DNA from: a virus
Taxonomy: Duplodnaviria > Heunggongvirae > Uroviricota > Caudoviricetes
DNA length: 25,367 bases
IMG/VR virus record: IMGVR_UViG_2690315922_000022
Location: 1-25,367 of that record
Direction: 5' to 3' (one strand)
The notes under the pieces: generated by a model
The model's input: the letters and a program-made list of their open reading frames with translations, nothing else
Told to the model about the DNA's origin: nothing
Database searches by the model: none
Program-made: the position numbers and the translations under genes
In this document: one piece after another, positions 1 to 24,509 of the stretch
Layout of the letters: every line of letters begins with the position of its first letter
Numbering within the stretch: the first letter of the stretch is position 1

Positions 1-1158
1 ATGCTCACCGTTAAACAGATTGAAGCGGCAAAGCCGAAAGAGAAACCATACCGACTTGTTGATGGTAATGGTCTGTACCTTTATGTCCCTGTATCCGGAA
101 AAAAGGTCTGGCAGCTTCGCTACAAGATTGACGGTAAAGAGAAAATCCTGACTGTCGGAAAATATCCGCTTATGACTTTGCAGGAGGCAAGGAATAAAGC
201 ATGGACTGCGAGGAAAGACATCTCGGTTGGCATAGATCCGGTAAAGGCGAAAAAGGCTTCGTCTAACAACAATTCTTTTAGTGCAATTTACAAGGAATGG
301 TACGAGCACAAGAAGCAAGTTTGGTCGGTAGGCTATGCAAATGAACTTGCAAAAATGTTTGATGACGACATTTTACCTATCATCGGCAGCCTTGAAATTC
401 AGGATATTGAGCCGATGCAACTTCTTGAAGTAATCCGCAGGTTTGAAGATCGCGGTGCAATGGAGCGAGCCAACAAAGCACGCAGAAGATGCGGCGAGGT
501 TTTCCGTTACGCTATTGTCACCGGAAGGGCTAAATATAACCCAGCACCTGACCTTGCAGACGCCATGAAAGGATACCGCAAGAAGAACTTCCCGTTTCTT
601 CCTGCAGACCAGATCCCGGCATTCAACAAAGCACTGGCAACATTTTCAGGAAGTATCGTATCGCTCATTGCGACCAAAGTTTTACGCTACACAGCCCTAA
701 GAACGAAAGAGCTTCGTTCCATGCTATGGAAGAACGTCGATTTTGAAAACAGGATTATCACCATTGACGCCAGTGTGATGAAGGGACGCAAAATTCATGT
801 GGTTCCTATGTCAGACCAGGTAGTTGAACTTCTCACTACGCTAATCTCAATCACCAAACCAGTATCAGAGTTTGTTTTTGCCGGGCGCAACGATAAGAAG
901 AAGCCAATCTGTGAGAACGCAGTGCTACTTGTGATCAAACAAATCGGATATGAGGGTCTGGAAAGCGGTCACGGATTCAGGCATGAATTCAGCACGATTA
1001 TGAACGAGCACGAATGGCCCGCTGATGCTATTGAAGTGCAACTGGCACATGCCAACGGCGGTTCTGTGCGTGGAATTTACAACCATGCTCAGTATCTCGA
1101 TAAGCGCAGAGAAATGATGCAGTGGTGGGCGGACTGGCTTGATGAAAAGGTGGAGTGA
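1..1158 (+). CDS. int: Phage integrase, P4-type tyrosine recombinase (IntS / Sf6-Int-like); N-terminal arm-binding domain plus C-terminal catalytic domain
   Basis: 385-aa ORF starting at window base 1 (MLTVKQIEAAKPKEKPYRL...); C-terminal GHGFRHEF and RGIYNHAQYLDKR motifs typical of tyrosine recombinases. I recognise it from memory as near-identical to E. coli CPS-53 IntS. A start upstream of the window cannot be excluded. Confidence 0.9.
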   Translation: MLTVKQIEAAKPKEKPYRLVDGNGLYLYVPVSGKKVWQLRYKIDGKEKILTVGKYPLMTLQEARNKAWTARKDISVGIDPVKAKKASSNNNSFSAIYKEWYEHKKQVWSVGYANELAKMFDDDILPIIGSLEIQDIEPMQLLEVIRRFEDRGAMERANKARRRCGEVFRYAIVTGRAKYNPAPDLADAMKGYRKKNFPFLPADQIPAFNKALATFSGSIVSLIATKVLRYTALRTKELRSMLWKNVDFENRIITIDASVMKGRKIHVVPMSDQVVELLTTLISITKPVSEFVFAGRNDKKKPICENAVLLVIKQIGYEGLESGHGFRHEFSTIMNEHEWPADAIEVQLAHANGGSVRGIYNHAQYLDKRREMMQWWADWLDEKVE

Positions 1159-1182
1159 TCCGCCTTAAAAACTATCGAATAG

Positions 1183-1230
1183 CACAAAGCCTTGCAATCC
1201 AGTGAAAAGCTTTGTGTGTATGAGTTTTTT
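1183..1230 (+). terminator. Putative int 3' stem-loop: 8-bp inverted repeat CACAAAGC...GCTTTGTG followed by a T6 run
   Basis: Perfect 8-bp inverted repeat at 1183-1190 / 1209-1216 with an 18-nt loop, then TTTTTT at 1225-1230. Loop length and spacing are non-canonical. Confidence 0.3.
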
Positions 1231-1311
1231 CTCATCAACTACCGCAAGTCATCGATCGATTGAGACTAGGATGATAGACTCCATGCCTTTAATTATTAGC
1301 TGATAGAAGAA

Positions 1312-1674
1312 ATGTTAAAGCTATTTGCAAAGTACACCTCGATTGGTGTGCTAAACACACTTATACACTGGGTGGTTTTTGGTGTCTGTATCTATGCAGC
1401 GCATACAAATCAGGCTCTGGCAAACTTCGCAGGTTTCGTTGTGGCAGTGAGCTTTAGCTTCTTCGCGAATGCAAAATTCACATTCAAAGCATCGGCTACA
1501 ACGATGCGCTACATGTTATATGTCACGTTCATGGGAGCGCTTAGCGCTGCTGTTGGATGGGCTGCTGATAGATGCGCACTTCCCCCAATCATTACTCTTA
1601 TAACCTCCTCCGCCATCAGCCTGGTGTGCGGTTTCGTCTATTCAAGGTTAATTGTCTTTAGGAGTGCGAAATGA
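1312..1674 (+). CDS. gtrA: GtrA, bactoprenol-linked glucose translocase (flippase), small 4-TM membrane protein
   Basis: 120-aa hydrophobic protein immediately downstream of int, overlapping the next gene by 4 nt (ATGA); size and sequence are typical of GtrA in serotype-converting phages. Confidence 0.9.
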
Positions 1675-2594
1675 AGATATCTCTTGTAGTTCCTGTCTTC
1701 AATGAAGAAGAGGCGATACCAATTTTTTATAAAACGGTGCGTGAATTCGAAGAGTTGAAGCCATATGAAGTAGAAATTGTTTTTATAAATGATGGTAGCA
1801 AAGACGCTACTGAGTCAATTATTAATGCTCTGGCTGTTTCAGATCCTCTAGTTATTCCTCTGTCATTTACTCGCAACTTTGGTAAAGAACCAGCATTGTT
1901 TGCAGGGTTAGACCATGCTACTGGAGATGCCGTGATTCCAATTGATGTTGACCTGCAAGACCCGATTGAGGTTATCCCTCATCTTATTGAAAACTGGCAG
2001 GCTGGCGCCGATATGGTGCTGGCAAAGCGTTCAGACCGCTCTACAGATGGGCGTCTGAAGCGCAAGACAGCAGAGTGGTTTTATAAGCTTCACAATAAAA
2101 TCAGCAATCCGAAGATCGAGGAAAATGTTGGCGATTTCCGGCTGATGTCCCGCGATGTAGTGGATAATATTAAGCTTATGCCAGAACGCAATCTTTTCAT
2201 GAAAGGCATTCTTAGTTGGGTTGGTGGGTCTACAGATGTAGTTGAGTATGTCCGTGCTGAGCGGATAGCCGGCAGCACGAAATTCAATGGATGGAAATTA
2301 TGGAACCTAGCACTTGAAGGTATAACAAGTTTCTCCACTTTCCCTCTGCGTATGTGGACTTATATTGGGCTATTCGTAGCTGGAATGGCTCTTTTATATG
2401 GCACATGGATGATTATCGATACCTTGGTGTTTGGGAATCCGGTTCGCGGTTACCCATCACTTATTGTATCCATTCTCTTCTTAGGCGGAATTCAGCTTAT
2501 AGGAATTGGCGTACTTGGTGAATATATAGGAAGAATTTACATAGAGTGCAAAGATAGACCTAGATTTATTATCAAGAGAATGAAAAATGAATAA
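1671..2594 (+). CDS. gtrB: GtrB, bactoprenol glucosyltransferase (GT2 family)
   Basis: 307 aa; N-terminal GT2 signature ([23 protein letters not shown]) and two C-terminal TM helices; coupled to gtrA and to the downstream gene by overlapping stop/start. Confidence 0.92.
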
Positions 2595-4017
2595 AACAAT
2601 TAAAATCAACTTCTACATACTATTTATTATTTTGTTTTTTATTATAACATGTAATATTTACTACTATGATGATGTATTTAGATCGTATTGGGGATATTAT
2701 GGTTGGTCTGAAGATGGAAGGCCTTTTGCAGATTTATTCTATAAATTATTTATTTTCTTTAGATCTGAAAGCATACCAGATATTTACCCACTACCACTAA
2801 TTTTAACGTCTGTGCTTCTTGTTATATCACTAACAAAGGCATTGCAAAATATACTATCAAAAGATGGGGTTATAGTTAATATAACTTTTGCAATATTTAT
2901 GCTTAATCCTTTTCTTTTGTCTAATATGCTATTTAGATATGATGGTGCATTTATGATTTTATCTATTGCACTTTCGGCTATTCCGTTCATTTTTACAAAA
3001 AGTAGAACATTCGCCATATCATCACTACTGTGCCTAACAATATCGCTTGGATTGTATCAGGCCTCAATAAATGTGTATATTGGACTTGCATCAGTAGTGG
3101 TTGCAATGGAAGCATTGAAAGGGGAAAAGTTTACATCTATAGCCAGCAGAGTGCTATTATCTGTTACATGCGTAGTCTCTTCATATGTTATATACTCAAA
3201 ATTAATACTTGAATCATTATCTTTAAATAATAACTTCTCGAAATATGCTCAAATAGTTGAATTAAATAAAGGAGGAGTCATCAATGTTTATGAGAATATA
3301 ATTAACGCAGTTAAAAAAATTGATGTTGCTCTTCATAGTGGTATTGGAACACCTCTTTATATATTTCTATCAATAATAGCCATATCATCTGTGTGTGTTG
3401 CCATTAAACGAAAACAATTTCAGTTACTATTTTTTATTGCTATATCTATTTTAGGTTGTTTCTTTTCTTCTTTTGGTGTGTCTGTCTTTGGGAAATCGCC
3501 AGTATTTGTGTCAAGGATATTTATCGGATTTGGTGTTTTTATAATGGCAGTTCCTTTGATTGGCTCAGCACTTCTTAATTGGAAACTTAATTACTTACTA
3601 TCATTATTCATTGCAATTCCTATGCTGTCCATCTTTTTTGCCACCATTAATGCCTCAAGAGAGGAATTTAAATTCCAAAACAATTTATCACTTCAAATGA
3701 TTAATGATATTAATCATAGCAAAGCTAAATATCTCGACTTTGTTGTTATTGATGGCTATGCGAAGAACTCCTCTGTTGCAAGCATAAATAAGAAAATATT
3801 TCCCGTAATATCTGATATATTGCCTCCTGTCTTTACAAATAGATATGATGGTGGGGTTTTTACATTGATGAGAAATGGACTAAAAGATGTTGTTAGTGCT
3901 GAGTCATCAGCTGCAGACAACGCGGTATCAATATCAGATGACGGAAATCTAATTTCTGACAATAATATATATAGCATTCATGCGACCAAAGATATTATTG
4001 TAATAAAATTAAAATAA
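2587..4017 (+). CDS. Serotype-specific O-antigen glucosyltransferase (GtrC-type polytopic membrane protein); exact specificity not identifiable
   Basis: 476-aa multi-TM protein as third gene of the gtr operon; very AT-rich compared with gtrAB, as is typical of horizontally acquired type-specific gtr genes. Confidence 0.8.
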
Positions 4018-4023
4018 CCCCTA

Positions 4024-4065
4024 GCCCCCCTCCCGCATCAACTCCAGTAATGGCGGGAGAGGGGC
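4024..4065. terminator. GC-rich hairpin between the convergent gtr operon and tailspike gene (probable bidirectional terminator)
   Basis: 13-bp stem GCCCCCCTCCCGC / GCGGGAGAGGGGC (12 of 13 paired) with a 16-nt loop; U-rich tract follows on the minus strand, A-rich on the plus strand. Confidence 0.45.
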
Positions 4066-4084
4066 TACAAAAAATCAAATATCA

Positions 4085-6148
4085 CTAAGAAAAAATCCAA
4101 TTACCATACATTCCAGTTATTTCACTATATGTGCCTTCTTTATTTTTTAATTTAATCCAAGCGCCGAATTCAGTGGTGGCTACTTGCGTTACTTCTGAAG
4201 AGTTACTTACAAACCTTATATTTGCTACACCTATTGCTCTACTTGGTGATGAGATTGTCATAGCTCTTATTATTTTTAACTCTCTGAAATCACCAGTGCT
4301 ACTTGCAATTATATCAATATCATTAGTGCTATGGTTAAATATAATGGTGTTATTTAACAGCTTTGTATTTTGAAAAGATGTTATTGTGGCAATCCCTCCA
4401 ATAAATCCTCTTATCTGGGCCGGGCCAGTATCTCCACTATCATAGGCTAATGATGTGGTTATATTATCTTCCTCCTTTCCTATATGTATATCAATAAAGT
4501 ACTCTTTTAAACTAATACCAGCCAAAACTAAAAATGTTGATATAGTAGATGTACATTTTTTAATAACCAGATTCTTAAAATTTCGAGATAACCCGCTGCT
4601 TATTGGATCAATAGTTCTAGGTAATAATCTGATTATTTTATCCCCACCAGCTATAGTAGTTTCATCAACAATTTCACCTATTTCCACAAAAAGGCGGTCA
4701 TCCCCCAGCATTTCAAAAACACAAAAGTCTAAAGGAGACGTTTTAAATACCACTCTATCAATTAAGATTTTCCCTATACCATTTCCCATAACTCTAGTAG
4801 CTGTCACCCCTCTGTTAGTCACATTCGTTAGTGTTGTATTCCCCGAGATGATTACATCAGCTACAAGACTGTCAGGGAAAATATTAAGTTCCAAACCAGT
4901 ATACGCACCATTGATGTATGGGTTTGAGATTTCACAATTAATCAGCCGAGGGACAGTGTGTCCAGGCACACTTTCGTCTGCCTCTGGTTCAATATCTATG
5001 CCAGATTTCGGCATAGCACCTGTAACACCTCCGTAGTCACCAATATTATAAATCTCAGGATTAACTATTATTATGTTTTCACCTGACGTTAGGCTTATAC
5101 CGTTACGCCTGCATTGTTTGATGATCGGTTTTTCTATATAGATATTTTCTGGGACCGTGCCATCGGTAGTCCCCCACTTCATGCCTATATATATTCCGTC
5201 GCCAAACATGTTGGTATACAGTCCACCAATAATACGAATATTAGAGGATTGAAGTATTGTAAGCCCCCACCCATGTTCTCCTTCGGATGTGTTTGTTAAC
5301 CGATCACCTTCCAGTACAGGATTATAAATATTTACATTTTTAACACCGTTTGCTATGTAAATGATATGGCTTTGTGGCCTGTTTTGATTTGCTAGTTTTA
5401 ATGCCCCATCCTTTTCAAACCTTATAGTGCTATTATCTACGCATCTTAACACAGATTTAAAAGCATCATTTCCAGGTGAAAAAGGGTCTTCATTCACAGC
5501 CATCAAGTTTTCAAATGATTTATCTATAATGAATTCTGCACCAATAGACGCTGCGGATTCATACGCTTTTTGTAGTGTTTGTGCGTCATTGCAAAAATCA
5601 GAAGCATAAATAGAGCTGGTTTTCTTTAATTCAAATATCCTACCGTTTCTGCTCCTGATAATTAATATTCCATCTGGGGTGAGCGTGGGGGTGGATGATT
5701 CATAAACATATCTACCATGAATCATTACATGATTAAATATATCTGGGACATCCTCTTGCTCTATATTAATAGCAACATATATAAGTTTATTACTTAACTC
5801 CCCCCTTAACTGATCAGGGTCATACTTCAGCACATTCTGGAAATAGAACTGCTGTACGCCATACGCATCATAAACAGCCATAGAATGGCCTTGCACGGTT
5901 ACGAACTTGGCAATCTGTCCGTTATATACAGGGTAACCAGCAGCGTTAATGATGATTGGTTGCGATACAGGAACGTGAGAGCCGTCTTCGTTCTCCACAT
6001 AAACCTGAATCTGGTTTTCAGGATTTACCGGGTCAGTATCAATTTTACCGATATAAATTTTGCCATTAGCTACGGCTTTAAAAGAACGCGCCATAGTGAA
6101 GAGTTGCGAAGGCATGCTAACTACAACATTGGCTGTAATGTCTGTCAT
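4085..6148 (-). CDS. Tailspike protein: P22/Sf6-type N-terminal head-binding domain plus divergent right-handed beta-helix receptor-binding domain (probable O-antigen depolymerase)
   Basis: 687 aa; the first ~110 aa ([34 protein letters not shown]...KYDPDQ) match the conserved tailspike N-terminal domain as I recall it; the remainder is AT-rich with beta-helix-like repeats ([22 protein letters not shown]); GGAG RBS 9 nt upstream. Confidence 0.85.
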
Positions 6149-6204
6149 TTAATTTGCTCCAGATACAAGGAATCGCCGCAGCATGGCTACGGTGAATTTT
6201 GGGC

Positions 6205-6230
6205 ATAAAAAAACCCAGCCGAAGCTGGGT
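6205..6230 (-). terminator. Intrinsic terminator downstream of ant
   Basis: On the minus strand: CCCAGC-TTCG-GCTGGG hairpin followed by a T7 run, about 20 nt after the ant stop codon. Confidence 0.55.
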
Positions 6231-6248
6231 CGTTGCGTTGGTTATCTG

Positions 6249-7127
6249 TCAGTAGTTATGTACTGAAGGAGGTAATTCTTTATTCTTAAGTCTCATCCAT
6301 GCGGAAAGATTCGTTGGTCCGTCTGGCTCATTAATATCAACATCTCGTGTGTGATTGATTAAAACGTCTCTCGCCATTCCGATAACATACGAGAACTCAT
6401 GACCGTAGTCGTAGCATCTGCCGGAATAGTTCGATTGAATTTGTTTTAGCGCCGGATACAGTTCGCGGAATAATGCCTGTGAGCGGTTAGCATAATCCCA
6501 TAACCATACAAGGCTGTTTGCTTCTTTTGCAGAAAGCTCGTCGGTTTTCTTCTCTTGTTTGCCAATGAACTCGCCTTCAAGCACTACCCTGTGGATGTAC
6601 TCTACGGCCAGCGGGATTTGTTCAATTGAAAGTTCATCAATACTGTCAATACCAAAACGCTGATGAACCATATTGTATGCATCGTCATAGCGAAGTCCTT
6701 TCTTTCCTACCAGCATGTTTACTGCATCGCGTAGCGGTGTTCTTTCCTCAACAGTGGTTTTCTTTCCTTTTACATACTCGCCATGTTTGCGAATTGAAGG
6801 CAGAACTTCTGCTGTTACCCATTTGCGGAATTTGTGCGGGACTGAACCTTTATTGACTGCATCGCGGCAGCGCAGAACCAATGTATACATACCTGATTCG
6901 CTCACAATGCTTAGATTCTGCTCACCACCAAGGGTGTAACTTAAAGTTACTCCCTTTTCATCGTCATCAAGTGCAGTAAGCGCCTTGCGTGAGTTAGTCA
7001 AAGCTAAAGCATCACAAACATCTTTAGCTACAAACCACGGCTCACCGCACTTGTTGATGACGCGGATTTCACTGTCGCCGAATTTGAAGATGGTGAAATC
7101 GTTTTGTGCCTTTGCTATACTTTTCAT
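6249..7127 (-). CDS. ant: Antirepressor Ant (Bro-N / KilA-type N-terminal domain plus ANT C-terminal domain)
   Basis: 292 aa (P22 Ant is about 300 aa); N-terminal [11 protein letters not shown]...[14 protein letters not shown] motif; located immediately downstream of the arc-like gene as in P22 immI. Confidence 0.85.
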
Positions 7128-7199
7128 GTCAATATTTCCTAATCCGATTTGTTGATACCGAAGCCCTGACTGTTACAGCAGTTGGGGCTTCAACTTTTT
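7128..7199 (+). ncRNA. sar: Candidate sar-like antisense RNA covering the ant RBS and arc-ant intergenic region
   Basis: Plus-strand hairpin GAAGCCC (7160-7166) / GGGCTTC (7185-7191) followed by T5 (7195-7199), antisense to the ant leader; no plus-strand gene is upstream. The 5' end is not defined and promoter elements are weak. Confidence 0.3.
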
Positions 7200-7330
7200 A
7201 GGCTGCGAATAAGACGCTGCACTATTTCTGAATTTAAAGACCTGCCCTCCTCCTTAGCCTTTTCCTTCAATTTTTCTTTAATCTCTGGCGGGATACGAAT
7301 CCCTAATGGAGCGATATCTCTAACTTTCAT
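7190..7330 (-). CDS. arc: Arc-like ribbon-helix-helix repressor
   Basis: 46-aa product from the internal Met (MKVRDIAPLGIRIPPEIKEKLKEKAKEEGRSLNSEIVQRLIRSLKS) with the RHH signature GRS-NSEI; the 87-aa upstream extension is rejected because it would run across the divergent promoter into mnt. Confidence 0.6.
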   Translation of the reverse strand: MKVRDIAPLGIRIPPEIKEKLKEKAKEEGRSLNSEIVQRLIRSLKS

Positions 7331-7440
7331 TTCTTTCCCAATTGCTACACCATGATAACTAAATACTACACCGTGTTTATTTAAAGTCAAAATTTTTTTG
7401 CCTACACTGTGTAGCAATGCTACAGCGTGCAGGAGGAAAA
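7331..7440. promoter_or_regulatory. Divergent Pant / Pmnt promoter-operator region with four CTACAC-type repeats
   Basis: Minus strand: -35 TTGACT (7390-7385), 16-nt spacer, -10 TAGTAT (7368-7363). Palindromes ACACCGTGT (7368-7376) and CTACACTGTGTAG (7402-7414) plus GCTACACC and GCTACAGC copies; AGGAGG RBS sits 4 nt before the mnt ATG. Confidence 0.5.
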
Positions 7441-7689
7441 ATGAAAGGTGCAAGAGATATCAGTCCCTTGGGAATTAGGATTCCAGACTATTTAAAGAAA
7501 CGCATTCAGCAGGAAGCGGATAAAAACGGCAGATCAATGAACTCAGAGATTGTGCTTATCCTTCAAAAACATGTTGATAATCTTGATGGCCCTCGCTCAC
7601 TTGAAGGATTCGCTAACCAAGAAGCTGATAAATTCAAAGAGGCGCTGCTTGAGACGCTGAAAACCATGTATGGCAAGGATGAAAAATGA
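7441..7689 (+). CDS. mnt: Mnt-like ribbon-helix-helix repressor with C-terminal coiled-coil
   Basis: 82 aa from the Met preceded by AGGAGG; N-terminus RDISPLGIRIPDYLKKRIQQEADKNGRSMNSEI is an RHH fold; length matches P22 Mnt (83 aa); divergent from arc-ant. Confidence 0.7.
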   Translation: MKGARDISPLGIRIPDYLKKRIQQEADKNGRSMNSEIVLILQKHVDNLDGPRSLEGFANQEADKFKEALLETLKTMYGKDEK

Positions 7690-7895
7690 ACAAAAAACAG
7701 TTTATTAAGTCAACAACGTCAAGCAAGGAAGAGCTAGAGAAGGAGCTAAACTCCCTGAAATATGCTCTGTGCCTGGTTTACTCAAGACTGCCAATGGAAG
7801 ATAAAAACGCCATTTACAATGAAATGATTAACAGCCTTGATTTTAACGATAGAGACCTAGCATCCCACCTCAACAGCTTCCGCGTCCCTGAGTAA
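7686..7895 (+). CDS. Hypothetical 69-aa protein translationally coupled to mnt
   Basis: ATGA stop/start overlap with mnt; AAGGA RBS; AT-rich; no family recognised. Confidence 0.45.
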   Translation: MNKKQFIKSTTSSKEELEKELNSLKYALCLVYSRLPMEDKNAIYNEMINSLDFNDRDLASHLNSFRVPE

Positions 7896-8055
7896 TTCTA
7901 TTGCGGATTTGCTTCTTACGGTGGTTTAAGCTGGAGAGCTTGGCTTCTGCTTCTGATATTTGCGCATCAAGATCTTTAAGCTCAAGATCTGAAAGTCGCT
8001 GGTCAAGCAGGGTTTGGTTCAACTCAATGTTGTTCAGGCGTTCTTCTATGGTCAT
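7870..8055 (-). CDS. Hypothetical 62-aa coiled-coil protein
   Basis: Internal Met with strong RBS (AAGGAGAAATC-ATG); heptad-like sequence (LNNIELNQTLLDQRLSDLELKDLDAQISEAEAKL); its 3' end overlaps the convergent 69-aa gene by 26 nt. Confidence 0.4.
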   Translation of the reverse strand: MTIEERLNNIELNQTLLDQRLSDLELKDLDAQISEAEAKLSSLNHRKKQIRNRITQGRGSC

Positions 8056-8196
8056 GATTTCTCCTTGTTGAGGTTGATGTGAAACGATTGATTGTATACG
8101 CACTCTTTTGTTAGCTAGTAGCTTTGCTTAATCGCAAGATAAAGTTTCTGATTAATCCCTAAAAATCAAAAAATAAAGTTAAAACAGGTACATGAT

Positions 8197-8400
8197 ATGG
8201 AATGGATCATAGGATTTGTTGTTCTTGTCTTCATAGCCAGTATGTTTAAACCAAGAAGTTGCGATATCTGTGGTGCTGGATTTAAGAAAAAGTACTTCAC
8301 ATGGACTATCGATGGAAAGAAACAGCATCTTTGTCCGTACTGCAACAGTAAAATGGAGAGACGCAACAGCGATAGGCGCTTTAAGGATCGATTTGGTTAA
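8197..8400 (+). CDS. Hypothetical small membrane protein with zinc-ribbon-like C-terminus
   Basis: 67 aa: N-terminal TM helix (WIIGFVVLVFIASMF) followed by CDICG...CPYC, then a basic tail; terminator follows immediately. Confidence 0.5.
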   Translation: MEWIIGFVVLVFIASMFKPRSCDICGAGFKKKYFTWTIDGKKQHLCPYCNSKMERRNSDRRFKDRFG

Positions 8401-8413
8401 CCATTTTATCTCC

Positions 8414-8449
8414 AACAAAAAACCCACCTGACGGTGGGTTTCATTTCTT
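8414..8449. terminator. Bidirectional intrinsic terminator
   Basis: AACCCACC-TGAC-GGTGGGTT hairpin flanked by an A-run upstream and a T-rich tract downstream; lies between the convergent 8197-8400 (+) and 8448-8867 (-) genes. Confidence 0.55.
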
Positions 8450-8867
8450 AATCTTGCTTCGTGGAAGGTATAAGAGATGCATTTGCCTCTTTTGGCTTCA
8501 ATGTATACATCCCACCATTAAATGGATCAACAGCAAGCCAACCAATTAACCCACCAAACACAAGGTTTCCACCAATATACCAACCATTAGCATTGGCTTT
8601 GATTGGCAGGGTAACTGATTCGTACCCATCCTTTTCCATAGTGATCTGGTAGCTCTTTTTGCCAAAATAACTACCATCTGACTTGGCAAGAGTTACTCCT
8701 TGTGGAGTCTTGCCTTGCGCAACAATCACGCCTGATTCATCTTTTACCTTAAAGCTCGCACCGGAAGGGTTGCTGTTCACTTGCACAAGTTGCGTTTCAT
8801 CACCAACAATAGTTGCGCACCCAGATAACATCATAGCGCCAGCAACGACGCCAATAATCCTCTTCAT
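8448..8867 (-). CDS. Outer-membrane lipoprotein with PEGA-like beta-domain and glycine-rich hydrophobic C-terminal motif
   Basis: Signal peptide with lipobox (MKRIIGVVAGAMMLSGC, Ala at +2); mature region VNSNPSGASFKV...GKTP...EKDGYESVT fits the PEGA pattern; C-terminal GGNLVFGGLIGWLAVDPFNGGMY. An alternative start 12 nt upstream (MEIDMKR) is possible. Confidence 0.6.
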   Translation of the reverse strand: MKRIIGVVAGAMMLSGCATIVGDETQLVQVNSNPSGASFKVKDESGVIVAQGKTPQGVTLAKSDGSYFGKKSYQITMEKDGYESVTLPIKANANGWYIGGNLVFGGLIGWLAVDPFNGGMYTLKPKEANASLIPSTKQD

Positions 8868-8988
8868 ATCAATTTCCATATTTAAAAAACCGGAAACATC
8901 CTAATGACAAACCATTCAAATGTGAAGTAGGCAAAAGATGTTTACTTTTTTCATGATATCCTGTGAAAAACTAAGGAGAGTTAACCAT

Positions 8989-9474
8989 ATGAAAAAATCA
9001 CTGTTAATTATCCCGCTTCTGCTGGTTGGATGCGCAAAAGTAAGTGACTATCAAGCAAGTTGCGAACAACGCTATCACAAGCTTAGCGATATGGCTAATT
9101 GCCTTGATGCCAGTGTGAAGAACGACTCACGCATGGCATCAGCACCAACACCTAAGTTGTATGTCCTTGCTGCAAAGATGCTCGGGCAAGGTGTCGATGA
9201 AGGCAAGATAAGTGACGCACAGGCAAGGCTTGAGCTTCAGAATCTTTATGTTCAATTACAAAGCCAAGAACAAGCCCAACAAATAGCACAAAGCCAAGCA
9301 TTCCAGCAGGCTTTATTGAATTATCAGGCTGTAAACACAATGCAAGCGATCGAGCAAAAAGCGAGACAGCCTGTTATAACTCAACCCTATCCAACACGCG
9401 TTGACACTTACACAAACTGCAATTCAGGGTTTGGAAATACAGTCACATGCAACAGTAGCAGTAACATAAGATAA
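8989..9474 (+). CDS. Lipoprotein with Gln-rich coiled-coil region, function unknown
   Basis: Start at the internal Met preceded by AAGGAGAG RBS; lipobox signal MKKSLLIIPLLLVGC (Ala at +2); several Cys and a Q-rich helical segment; divergently transcribed from the neighbouring lipoprotein. Confidence 0.6.
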   Translation: MKKSLLIIPLLLVGCAKVSDYQASCEQRYHKLSDMANCLDASVKNDSRMASAPTPKLYVLAAKMLGQGVDEGKISDAQARLELQNLYVQLQSQEQAQQIAQSQAFQQALLNYQAVNTMQAIEQKARQPVITQPYPTRVDTYTNCNSGFGNTVTCNSSSNIR

Positions 9475-23712: not shown

Positions 23713-23916
23713 TCATTTTTTCCCTTTCTGTTTACCTGCCCACTGTTTTGCAATGTACAGGCAGTCATCGAAAATTCGGCCTTTTCTGCTGGCTTGTGAA
23801 CAACGGCGGTAATGTTCCACCGCCATGTCAGCGCCAGTCATAGCCGCGTTTTGGTCGTATCCAAGCTTTATTAACTCGGTTGTTACATTTTTATGTATGA
23901 AATCAATCGGAGTCAT
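23713..23916 (-). CDS. Hypothetical 67-aa protein coupled to rha
   Basis: ATGA overlap with the rha stop; basic C-terminus. Confidence 0.4.
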   Translation of the reverse strand: MTPIDFIHKNVTTELIKLGYDQNAAMTGADMAVEHYRRCSQASRKGRIFDDCLYIAKQWAGKQKGKK

Positions 23917-24509
23917 GCTGGTTTACCATCAGGGAAATCCCCCATGTCACATAGCTTGAACTGAATCAGATCCTTCACAAGCTGCTCAGCCTTTTTAATG
24001 GCCTTCTTCTCTTTCTTCCGACGAGTCATGAGAGCGCTACCTGCTTGACCGTGCATTTCAAATGAGAACTTCTCAGCAGCCGCGACACGGTTTTGCATTT
24101 CGCTGATTGCCATATCGGTCAGGCCAGAGAAATCGAGGAGGTTAATGTCCTTCCCACCCTCAAGCTCAGTCATGTGGTCATACACCTGCGCCTGAAGCTC
24201 ATAGCTGTAGCTCATTGCCATGAGGCAAGCTTCACGCTTGGGAAAATTGCAAATATCCCTCTCCACAACACCACCTGTTCCGTTGATATAGGTATCAGTT
24301 GCAAAAAATTTTGCAGCTGCATCCCCGAGAACCTTGGGTACTTTCTTCATGAAACTGCGGTGTTCGAGTTTGCGATATTTCTTACAGGGGAACGCAAGCC
24401 CCTCCGCCTCCGCTTTGGATTTCCGATCAGCATTAATGTAATCCACCATCTCAAGACTGCTCATGGTCGGGTATTCGCCAGAAGGAAGAACGGTTAATGA
24501 TTTGTTCAT
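23913..24509 (-). CDS. rha: Rha-family phage regulatory protein (P22 orf201-like)
   Basis: 198 aa; C-terminal part of the N-domain (REACLMAMSYSYELQAQVYDHMTELE) resembles the Rha/AntA DNA-binding family; sits between the lysis genes and terminase as in P22. Confidence 0.65.
   Translation of the reverse strand: MNKSLTVLPSGEYPTMSSLEMVDYINADRKSKAEAEGLAFPCKKYRKLEHRSFMKKVPKVLGDAAAKFFATDTYINGTGGVVERDICNFPKREACLMAMSYSYELQAQVYDHMTELEGGKDINLLDFSGLTDMAISEMQNRVAAAEKFSFEMHGQAGSALMTRRKKEKKAIKKAEQLVKDLIQFKLCDMGDFPDGKPA

Follow-up and report, generated by a model that had tools for sequence, protein, structure and literature searches.

The gtrABC operon of phage P22 is a documented conversion and exclusion system (PMC3688519), and a further report counts it among four prophage-expressed systems that interfere with superinfection (PMC10883804). 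The P22 genes lie in the order int, gtrA, gtrB, gtrC, terminator, convergent gene 9 tailspike, ant, sar and arc/mnt. Here we describe the same order in IMG/VR virus record IMGVR_UViG_2690315922_000022, analysed over its positions 1 to 25,367 (25,367 nucleotides, hereafter the window), which is by its sequence a P22-like (Lederbergvirus) prophage at tRNA-Arg(CCU). We consider it likely that the window holds a functional gtrABC conversion operon whose GtrC acts on an O128-type O-antigen, and that gtrC is coupled with the body of the convergent tailspike in one exchangeable cassette (Table 1). P22 already provides a precedent for gtrABC and for its place beside the tailspike; what is new is the specificity type of GtrC, its likely O128-type substrate, and the joint transfer and divergence of gtrC and the tailspike body.

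Comparison with P22 shows that GtrA is 76% and GtrB 87% identical and that both tailspikes carry the head-binding domain PF09008. However, the body of the P22 tailspike is unrelated to that in the window, and the P22 O-antigen is the Salmonella Gal-Rha-Man unit whereas the substrate proposed here has an O128-type backbone. In P22, int and gtrA are separated by the phage attachment site (attP); in the prophage described here, int is directly next to the tRNA. The Shigella flexneri Sf phages, for which a pathway through undecaprenyl phosphate-linked glucose (Und-P-Glc) has been proposed (PMC7685785), also carry a three-gene operon next to int, and the gtrAB DNA of SfI, SfII, SfIV and SfV is 83–84% identical to that of the window. 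They differ in having tail-fibre genes and another tail module, with no P22-type tailspike downstream of gtr. The P22-like backbones of phages Kapi1 and HF4s are 90–96% identical to parts of the window. Kapi1, which integrates at argW, both binds the O-antigen as its receptor and modifies it, although the gene responsible is not among the recognised gtrC genes. In HF4s, int and gtrABC are likewise accompanied by a convergent tailspike, but the HF4s GtrC and tailspike body are unrelated to those described here. The order int-gtr-tailspike is common to HF4s and every E. coli argW prophage that we fetched. A preliminary description of this DNA had drawn attention to gtrABC lying beside the tailspike; the arrangement stands, with the correction that it is canonical for P22-like phages and not special to the window.

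The first two proteins belong to well-characterised families. By Pfam, GtrA matches PF04138 (GtrA/DPMS family, E 2.5e-14) and GtrB matches PF00535 (GT2, E 3.5e-31). In amino acid sequence GtrA is 85–86% identical to the SfI, SfII, SfIV and SfV proteins and 92% identical to the copy in an E. coli O128 prophage described below, and GtrB is 91–92% identical to its Sf counterparts. Since GtrB is 87–92% identical to characterised enzymes, Und-P-linked glucose is the most likely donor. Measured against the E. coli O128 copy, the ratio of nonsynonymous to synonymous substitution rates (dN/dS) of the three gtr genes is 0.05–0.22, indicating purifying selection, with the value of 0.05 for gtrB.

We asked whether the third gene is intact and found no sign of truncation or decay. 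GtrC matches the GtrII-type transferase family PF14264 in Pfam (E 3.3e-30) over profile positions 1–315 of 317, and is matched over its full length by the PHROGs family phrog_4829, 'GtrC-like O-antigen conversion' (E 1.8e-58). Its length of 476 amino acids is the same as that of the E. coli orthologue and of the closest homologues, and its dN/dS against the E. coli O128 copy is 0.112. Hydrophobic segments extend up to residue ~357 and are followed by a soluble C-terminal domain; a structural model predicts the GT-C transmembrane core fold, with a helix at residues 3–22 preceding D28/D29. D28 is invariant in both alignments examined, of 13 and of 16 homologues with identities as low as 20%; D29 does not vary in the smaller alignment and is almost invariant in the larger. 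As acidic residues just after the first transmembrane helix, D28 and D29 may therefore be catalytic. All twelve of the residues conserved across homologues to 20% identity, namely D28, D29, R32, G44, R45, D65, P68, N113, D119, Y157, Q158 and R310, are kept in GtrC. The possibility that gtrC is a pseudogene or truncated is accordingly rejected, on its full length, its invariant residues and purifying selection. The outline given in the preliminary description, of gtrA, gtrB and a 476-residue polytopic third gene, proved exact to the base, and Pfam supplied the families.

Comparison with the known GtrC families, which that description had proposed, places the protein apart from all of them. The closest characterised GtrC is that of P22 (26.6% identity over 481 aligned positions, E 1e-33), and identity to any characterised GtrC is at most 27%. 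There is no significant similarity to GtrI, GtrII, GtrIV or GtrV (the best BLASTP match, to GtrII over 120 amino acids, has E 0.023 and the others have E >1; GtrX and GtrIc were not compared individually), nor to the GtrC of HF4s, and no Shigella phages appear among the tblastn matches of GtrC at E <= 1e-5. Salmonella GtrC families show >96% identity within and <18% between families (Davies et al. 2013, PMC3688519). Since 26.6% identity to P22 is far under the >96% found within families, GtrC falls outside Salmonella family I and, judged by its sequence, is a separate, previously uncharacterised specificity type with family I as its nearest characterised relative.

The closest copy of the whole arrangement is found in the argW prophage of E. 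coli O128 strain 90-9281 (NZ_CP024243.1), which carries an orthologous cassette with the same insertion site and gene order. Here GtrC is 94.7% identical and the whole tailspike 96.9% identical, and the proteins carry no annotation beyond 'glucosyltransferase domain-containing protein' and 'phage head-binding domain-containing protein'. This prophage differs in its host species, in having the intergenic hairpin replaced and in having no ant beside the tailspike.

To define the limits of the cassette we used four argW prophages of E. coli with different cassettes. BLASTN similarity to them stops at 2569–2586, where gtrB meets gtrC, and returns at 5803–5808, where the tailspike head-binding domain ends. 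These positions indicate that the exchanged unit consists of gtrC, the hairpin and tailspike residues 114–687, approximately 3.2 kb in all. Accordingly, the head-binding domain of the window is 82–97% identical to those of other argW prophage tailspikes whose bodies are unrelated. Sequence composition follows a similar pattern, with G+C fractions of 0.460 for gtrA, 0.418 for gtrB, 0.305 for gtrC, 0.364 for the tailspike body, 0.433 for the head-binding part and 0.493 elsewhere in the prophage. The preliminary description was thus right that gtrC is more AT-rich than its neighbours, but the AT-rich unit also takes in the tailspike body and is not gtrC alone. The gtrC genes of seven other loci are also of low G+C content (0.29–0.38). 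As this is general to all gtrC genes examined, we no longer count low G+C by itself as a sign of foreign origin, and the argument for horizontal acquisition of the specificity gene, which had been proposed from composition, now rests on the sharp recombination breakpoints. In other E. coli argW prophages the slot behind the conserved gtrAB holds unrelated transferase families; in strain GPEC1405 (L019:3094–4428) it is occupied by a WsfD-type hexose transferase.

Between the converging genes lies a hairpin at 4022–4068 with a predicted folding energy of −28.9 kcal/mol (z −5.9) on the plus strand and −35 kcal/mol (z −4.5) on the minus strand, and with a T-rich tail on the tailspike strand. A consensus scan missed it because of its 16-nucleotide loop. 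In the E. coli O128 copy the intergenic sequence at this place is different but likewise forms a stable hairpin (z −3.4), and stable hairpins from differing sequences at one place fit a shared terminator. Divergence from the E. coli O128 prophage is uneven across the region, with synonymous divergence (dS) of 0.46 for gtrB, 0.36 for the head domain, 0.21 for gtrC and 0.08 for the tailspike body. From these values the tailspike body, and to a lesser extent gtrC, seem to have been shared more recently than the flanking gtrB and head-binding domain.

We next consider in which hosts the cassette is found. The window corresponds to contig BBVO01000022.1, with 14,017 of the 14,017 available nucleotides identical (100%). 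BBVO01 is Escherichia albertii NIAH_Bird 26, of O-genotype EAOg8 (Ooka et al. 2019 supplement, PMC6927306). Antisera to E. coli O128 and to O55 both agglutinate this strain. Identity to the O128 genes is 89.3% for wzx and 88.1% for wzy, and the main chain of the EAO8 O-polysaccharide is reported to resemble O128, with a terminal colitose side sugar common to O55 (PMC6927306). The host flanks (fadL, mlaA, tRNA-Arg) are ~90% identical to E. coli, which is the expected interspecies distance. The exact GtrC protein occurs in 21 contigs, and near-identical copies (99.8–100%) are present in all eight E. albertii-derived contigs among those returned. A search with O128 Wzy for the O-type of the other E. 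albertii assemblies with the exact GtrC found an 85%-identical Wzy (P0016) in two metagenome contigs and nowhere else; the accessions given in the Poyang Lake paper are different ones. No GtrC relatives were found among GTDB representative genomes by a peptide-pattern scan, so that the species representatives are evidently without the cassette.

Among 5,426 complete E. coli genomes, gtrC is present in six and the tailspike body in those same six. One of the carriers is labelled O128:H27; its O-antigen cluster was located and its wzy used as a query. O128 wzy was found in 23 of the 5,426 genomes, including all six carriers (hypergeometric P = 2.9e-15, a statistic that ignores shared ancestry). 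The six carriers come from varied sources (human, pig, rabbit farm, bovine and civet), and their tailspikes form two sub-lineages that are 97% and 94% identical to the window. The cassette is absent from every non-O128 E. coli serogroup in this set, even though EAOg8 also cross-reacts with O55, which points to an O128-type backbone as the common denominator.

The two parts of the cassette also diverge in parallel when identities are measured against the proteins of the window. They fall from 94.7% for GtrC and 97.0% for the body in E. coli O128 (L001; P22-type anchor, argW) to 55.7% and 63.8% in a metagenome contig (L030, P0002; P22-type anchor), to 52.7% and 57.7% at argW in another genus, with flanks ~75% identical to Escherichia (L023, P0003; PF18668 anchor on a backbone most similar to CobraSix-like siphoviruses), and to 33.5% and 34.0% in a Proteus mirabilis prophage (L028, P0006; PF18668 anchor). 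Conversely, six cassettes whose GtrC is unrelated or distant (from no similarity to 27.7% identity: L017–L020, HF4s and P22) have no related tailspike body.

These associations could be by-products, with the gtrC-tailspike order inherited from the P22 plan and each gene selected independently by the host O-antigen. The same order is indeed found in P22, HF4s and every argW prophage examined, Lederbergvirus tailspike types are already linked with host serogroups in work that does not refer to gtr (PMC10408124), and one GtrC relative stands without a tailspike. However, both breakpoints flank the gtrC-tailspike pair exactly, and the pair recurs, adjacent and convergent, behind another anchor, on a siphovirus-like backbone and in Proteus, with identities that drop in parallel; independent selection predicts a common host range and not physical co-transfer. 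We therefore judge the by-product explanation unlikely and favour coupling of gtrC with the tailspike body. The relative without a tailspike indicates that the pairing is frequent but not obligatory. It lies in a chromosomal island (L026:5078–7437) where gtrB and the gtrC relative stand next to the flagellar genes fliE/fliF, with no integrase or tailspike called within 6 kb, and the family thus exists detached from phages too. In the prophage of the other genus, which is most similar to the Enterobacter siphovirus CobraSix, an IS200-type Y1 transposase gene (L023:7536–7994) lies between gtrC and the tailspike.

The tailspike on which gtrC had been said to converge is confirmed as a 687-residue gene on the opposite strand with a P22 head-binding domain (PF09008, E 3.6e-66 in Pfam). 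Residues 1–125 match PDB 7sg7 (Sf6 gp14; E 7.5e-66) and the P22 tailspike gp9. In addition to the copy in E. coli O128, the body is 67.5% identical to a protein of the lytic Gamaleyavirus PW8 and 28–31% identical to Acinetobacter capsule-depolymerase tailspikes, and it has a weak match to the beta-helix family PF13229 (18.1 bits, under the cut-off of 25.9). We propose that the body recognises, and probably cleaves, an O128-type O-antigen. Exchange of receptor-binding domains is a known pattern among coliphages (PMC10408124), which the relative in PW8 fits. In the PW8 record (vB_EcoP_PW8, PQ362703.1) this relative (L029:4494–6628) lies at the record start as a misc_feature, 'similar to hypothetical protein', and could represent a receptor-binding gene that is interrupted or lacks annotation.

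These comparisons directly establish that the genes are intact, their families and fold, purifying selection on them, the limits of the cassette, its linkage, its restriction by serogroup and the co-divergence of its parts. They are consistent with the following mechanism. GtrB would transfer glucose from UDP-glucose onto undecaprenyl phosphate at the cytoplasmic face, by homology to the Sf phages and P22, and GtrA would move Und-P-Glc across the inner membrane. In the periplasm, GtrC would attach the sugar, presumably glucose as judged from GtrB, to one particular sugar of an O-unit with an O128-type backbone (E. coli O128, E. albertii EAOg8). The tailspike body would recognise, and probably cleave, the same O-antigen, and the 3.2-kb cassette would be swapped as a unit between phage backbones. 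If the operon is expressed in the lysogen, as we infer, the receptor would be altered, and by analogy with P22 this would probably weaken adsorption of the same or similar phages, and so exclude them, and shift antigenicity. The preliminary description had read the neighbourhood as a lysogenic-conversion and exclusion logic; this idea gains support from gtrC and the tailspike body being completely linked and confined together to O128-type hosts.

Expression would be expected to be plain. In P22, phase variation of gtr depends on four GATC sequences, arranged as two GATC-N9-GATC pairs within three OxyR half sites (PMC2909390), and both pairs can be seen in the P22 sequence. The window lacks this four-GATC, three-half-site switch. 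Upstream of gtrA it has only two isolated GATCs (1157 and 1254), and there is no GATC-N9-GATC anywhere along its length, and Dam/OxyR phase variation of the operon is therefore rejected. Such pairs are also absent from the E. coli argW prophages and Sf phages compared. Since the P22-type switch is absent, expression from the prophage is probably not switched in the P22 manner.

Several observations weigh against the proposal that GtrC modifies an O128-type O-antigen within such a cassette. To our knowledge the published O128 repeat is without glucose. No glucosylated O128 or EAO8 structure is described in the accessible literature, a body of work that does not extend to the O128 and EAO8 structure papers themselves, and no structural basis of O128ab/O128ac was found there. 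Although NIAH_Bird 26 carries the prophage, O128 and O55 sera still agglutinate it, and E. coli 90-9281 continues to type as O128, so that the modification either spares those epitopes or the operon is silent. A consensus scan found no sigma-70 promoter upstream of gtrA (1159–1311) at its threshold. Seventeen of the 23 O128 genomes are without the cassette, shared ancestry may contribute to the serogroup statistic, and the link between E. albertii and O128 rests on one typed strain, NIAH_Bird 26. To these may be added the tailspike-free GtrC relative, at 40% identity, in the chromosomal island.

Some of these observations would be expected if the operon were silent, or if GtrC had no O-antigen substrate, such that lysogeny left the O-antigen unaltered. 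The lysogen still agglutinates with both sera, the scan detected no consensus promoter, and Salmonella GtrC families II and IV gave no detectable change in lipopolysaccharide (PMC3688519). We nevertheless regard this explanation as quite improbable, given that all three gtr genes are under purifying selection, that the family-invariant residues of GtrC are all kept, and that a gene without an O-antigen role would not readily be confined so strictly to O128-type hosts.

A further alternative is that the locus belongs to a decaying prophage remnant, like CPS-53 yfdGHI at the same site in E. coli K-12. The integration site is the same, the RefSeq gene names in E. coli are intS, yfdG and yfdH, and broken genes do occur in the gtrC slot elsewhere: in STEC379 (L017:3074–4349) a DUF6056 gene is split into two open reading frames and is probably a pseudogene. 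In the window, however, gtrA, gtrB and gtrC are all full length, near-identical copies recur in the E. albertii-derived contigs, and a complete P22-type virion module lies downstream. Being contradicted by the sequence, the remnant explanation is almost certainly wrong and was rejected. The downstream region comprises ant, sar, arc/mnt and a complete virion and injection module that is 94–96% identical to Kapi1, CUS-3, Sf6, Sf101 and others.

Returning to a functional operon coupled with its tailspike, we see the chances as evenly balanced that gtrC and the tailspike body form a portable 'recognise-and-mask' cassette, which combines adsorption to one backbone with an enzyme that alters that backbone after lysogeny, and which co-diverges while hopping between podovirus and siphovirus backbones, anchor types and genera (Escherichia, another enterobacterial genus and Proteus). 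If so, an undescribed glucosylated variant of O128/EAOg8 would be present in approximately one quarter of O128 strains (6 of 23 complete genomes carry the cassette), and might account for sub-factor heterogeneity within O128; NIAH_Bird 26, the EAOg8 reference strain, is itself among the carriers. A likely substrate for this GtrC type would be relevant to serotyping, glycoconjugate design and prediction of phage host range. The tailspike body, with its relative in a lytic Gamaleyavirus, is a candidate for a receptor-binding protein or depolymerase with O128 specificity. A computable rule would also follow from the way GtrC and the tailspike body diverge in parallel, with the tailspike predicting the GtrC substrate and the reverse.

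Table 1. Features of the gtrABC-tailspike region. Positions are those of the window; aa, amino acids.
Feature	Position	Strand	Family or basis
int, IntS type; beside host tRNA-Arg(CCU), just outside the window	1–1158	+	PF00589, PF22022, PF13356
gtrA, 120 aa; small membrane protein, putative Und-P-Glc flippase	1312–1674	+	PF04138
gtrB, 307 aa; GT2 bactoprenol glucosyltransferase, UDP-Glc to Und-P-Glc (predicted)	1671–2594	+	PF00535
gtrC, 476 aa; polytopic transferase with predicted GT-C fold, putative O-antigen-specific component	2587–4017	+	
GC-rich hairpin between the converging genes, probable shared terminator	4022–4068	.	Fold energy
Tailspike body, aa 114–687; receptor-binding, probably O-antigen-degrading	4085–5809	−	
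Tailspike N-terminal head-binding domain, aa 1–113; anchor to P22-like virion	5810–6148	−	PF09008
Exchangeable O-antigen specificity cassette (gtrC, hairpin and tailspike body)	2587–5807	.	
ant antirepressor, P22-type immI region	6249–7127	−	PF02498, PF10548
sar antisense RNA	7129–7195	+	Rfam RF00262, 69.4 bits, E 1e-12

In the list of open reading frames gtrA and gtrB overlap by 4 nucleotides and gtrB and gtrC by 8 nucleotides, with ATGAATAA at the gtrB/gtrC junction; from these start-stop overlaps a translationally coupled operon is expected. The int gene ends 153 nucleotides upstream of gtrA, and in the source contig tRNA-Arg(CCU) lies 162 nucleotides upstream of int (L002:7179–7414). Because int adjoins the tRNA, the attachment site lies beyond int as seen from gtrA, and int, gtrABC and the tailspike are contiguous in the prophage. 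The spacer between int and gtrA keeps a P22-like motif (caaagccttgcaa...), which in P22 is found just after the attP core. A possible hairpin after int (~1182–1217) was rejected as a terminator, being no better than shuffled sequences (z −1.56).

Beyond the tailspike, the immI region is complete and of P22 type, with sar immediately upstream of ant and arc/mnt at ~7190–7689. Between immI and the DNA-transfer gene are the divergent open reading frames 8448–8879 (minus strand) and 8938–9474 (plus strand), and also 7686–7895 (plus strand), which match phrog_6823, phrog_6067 and phrog_16466; none of the three has a match in Pfam or PADLOC. Their position is comparable to that of sieA and small unnamed open reading frames in P22, and they are candidate morons or exclusion genes. 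Finally, a 198-residue open reading frame beside Rz (23913–24509, minus strand), which has no Pfam match, resembles Ant and transcription regulators in its N-terminal part (phrog_63 and phrog_4936, E ~1e-11).

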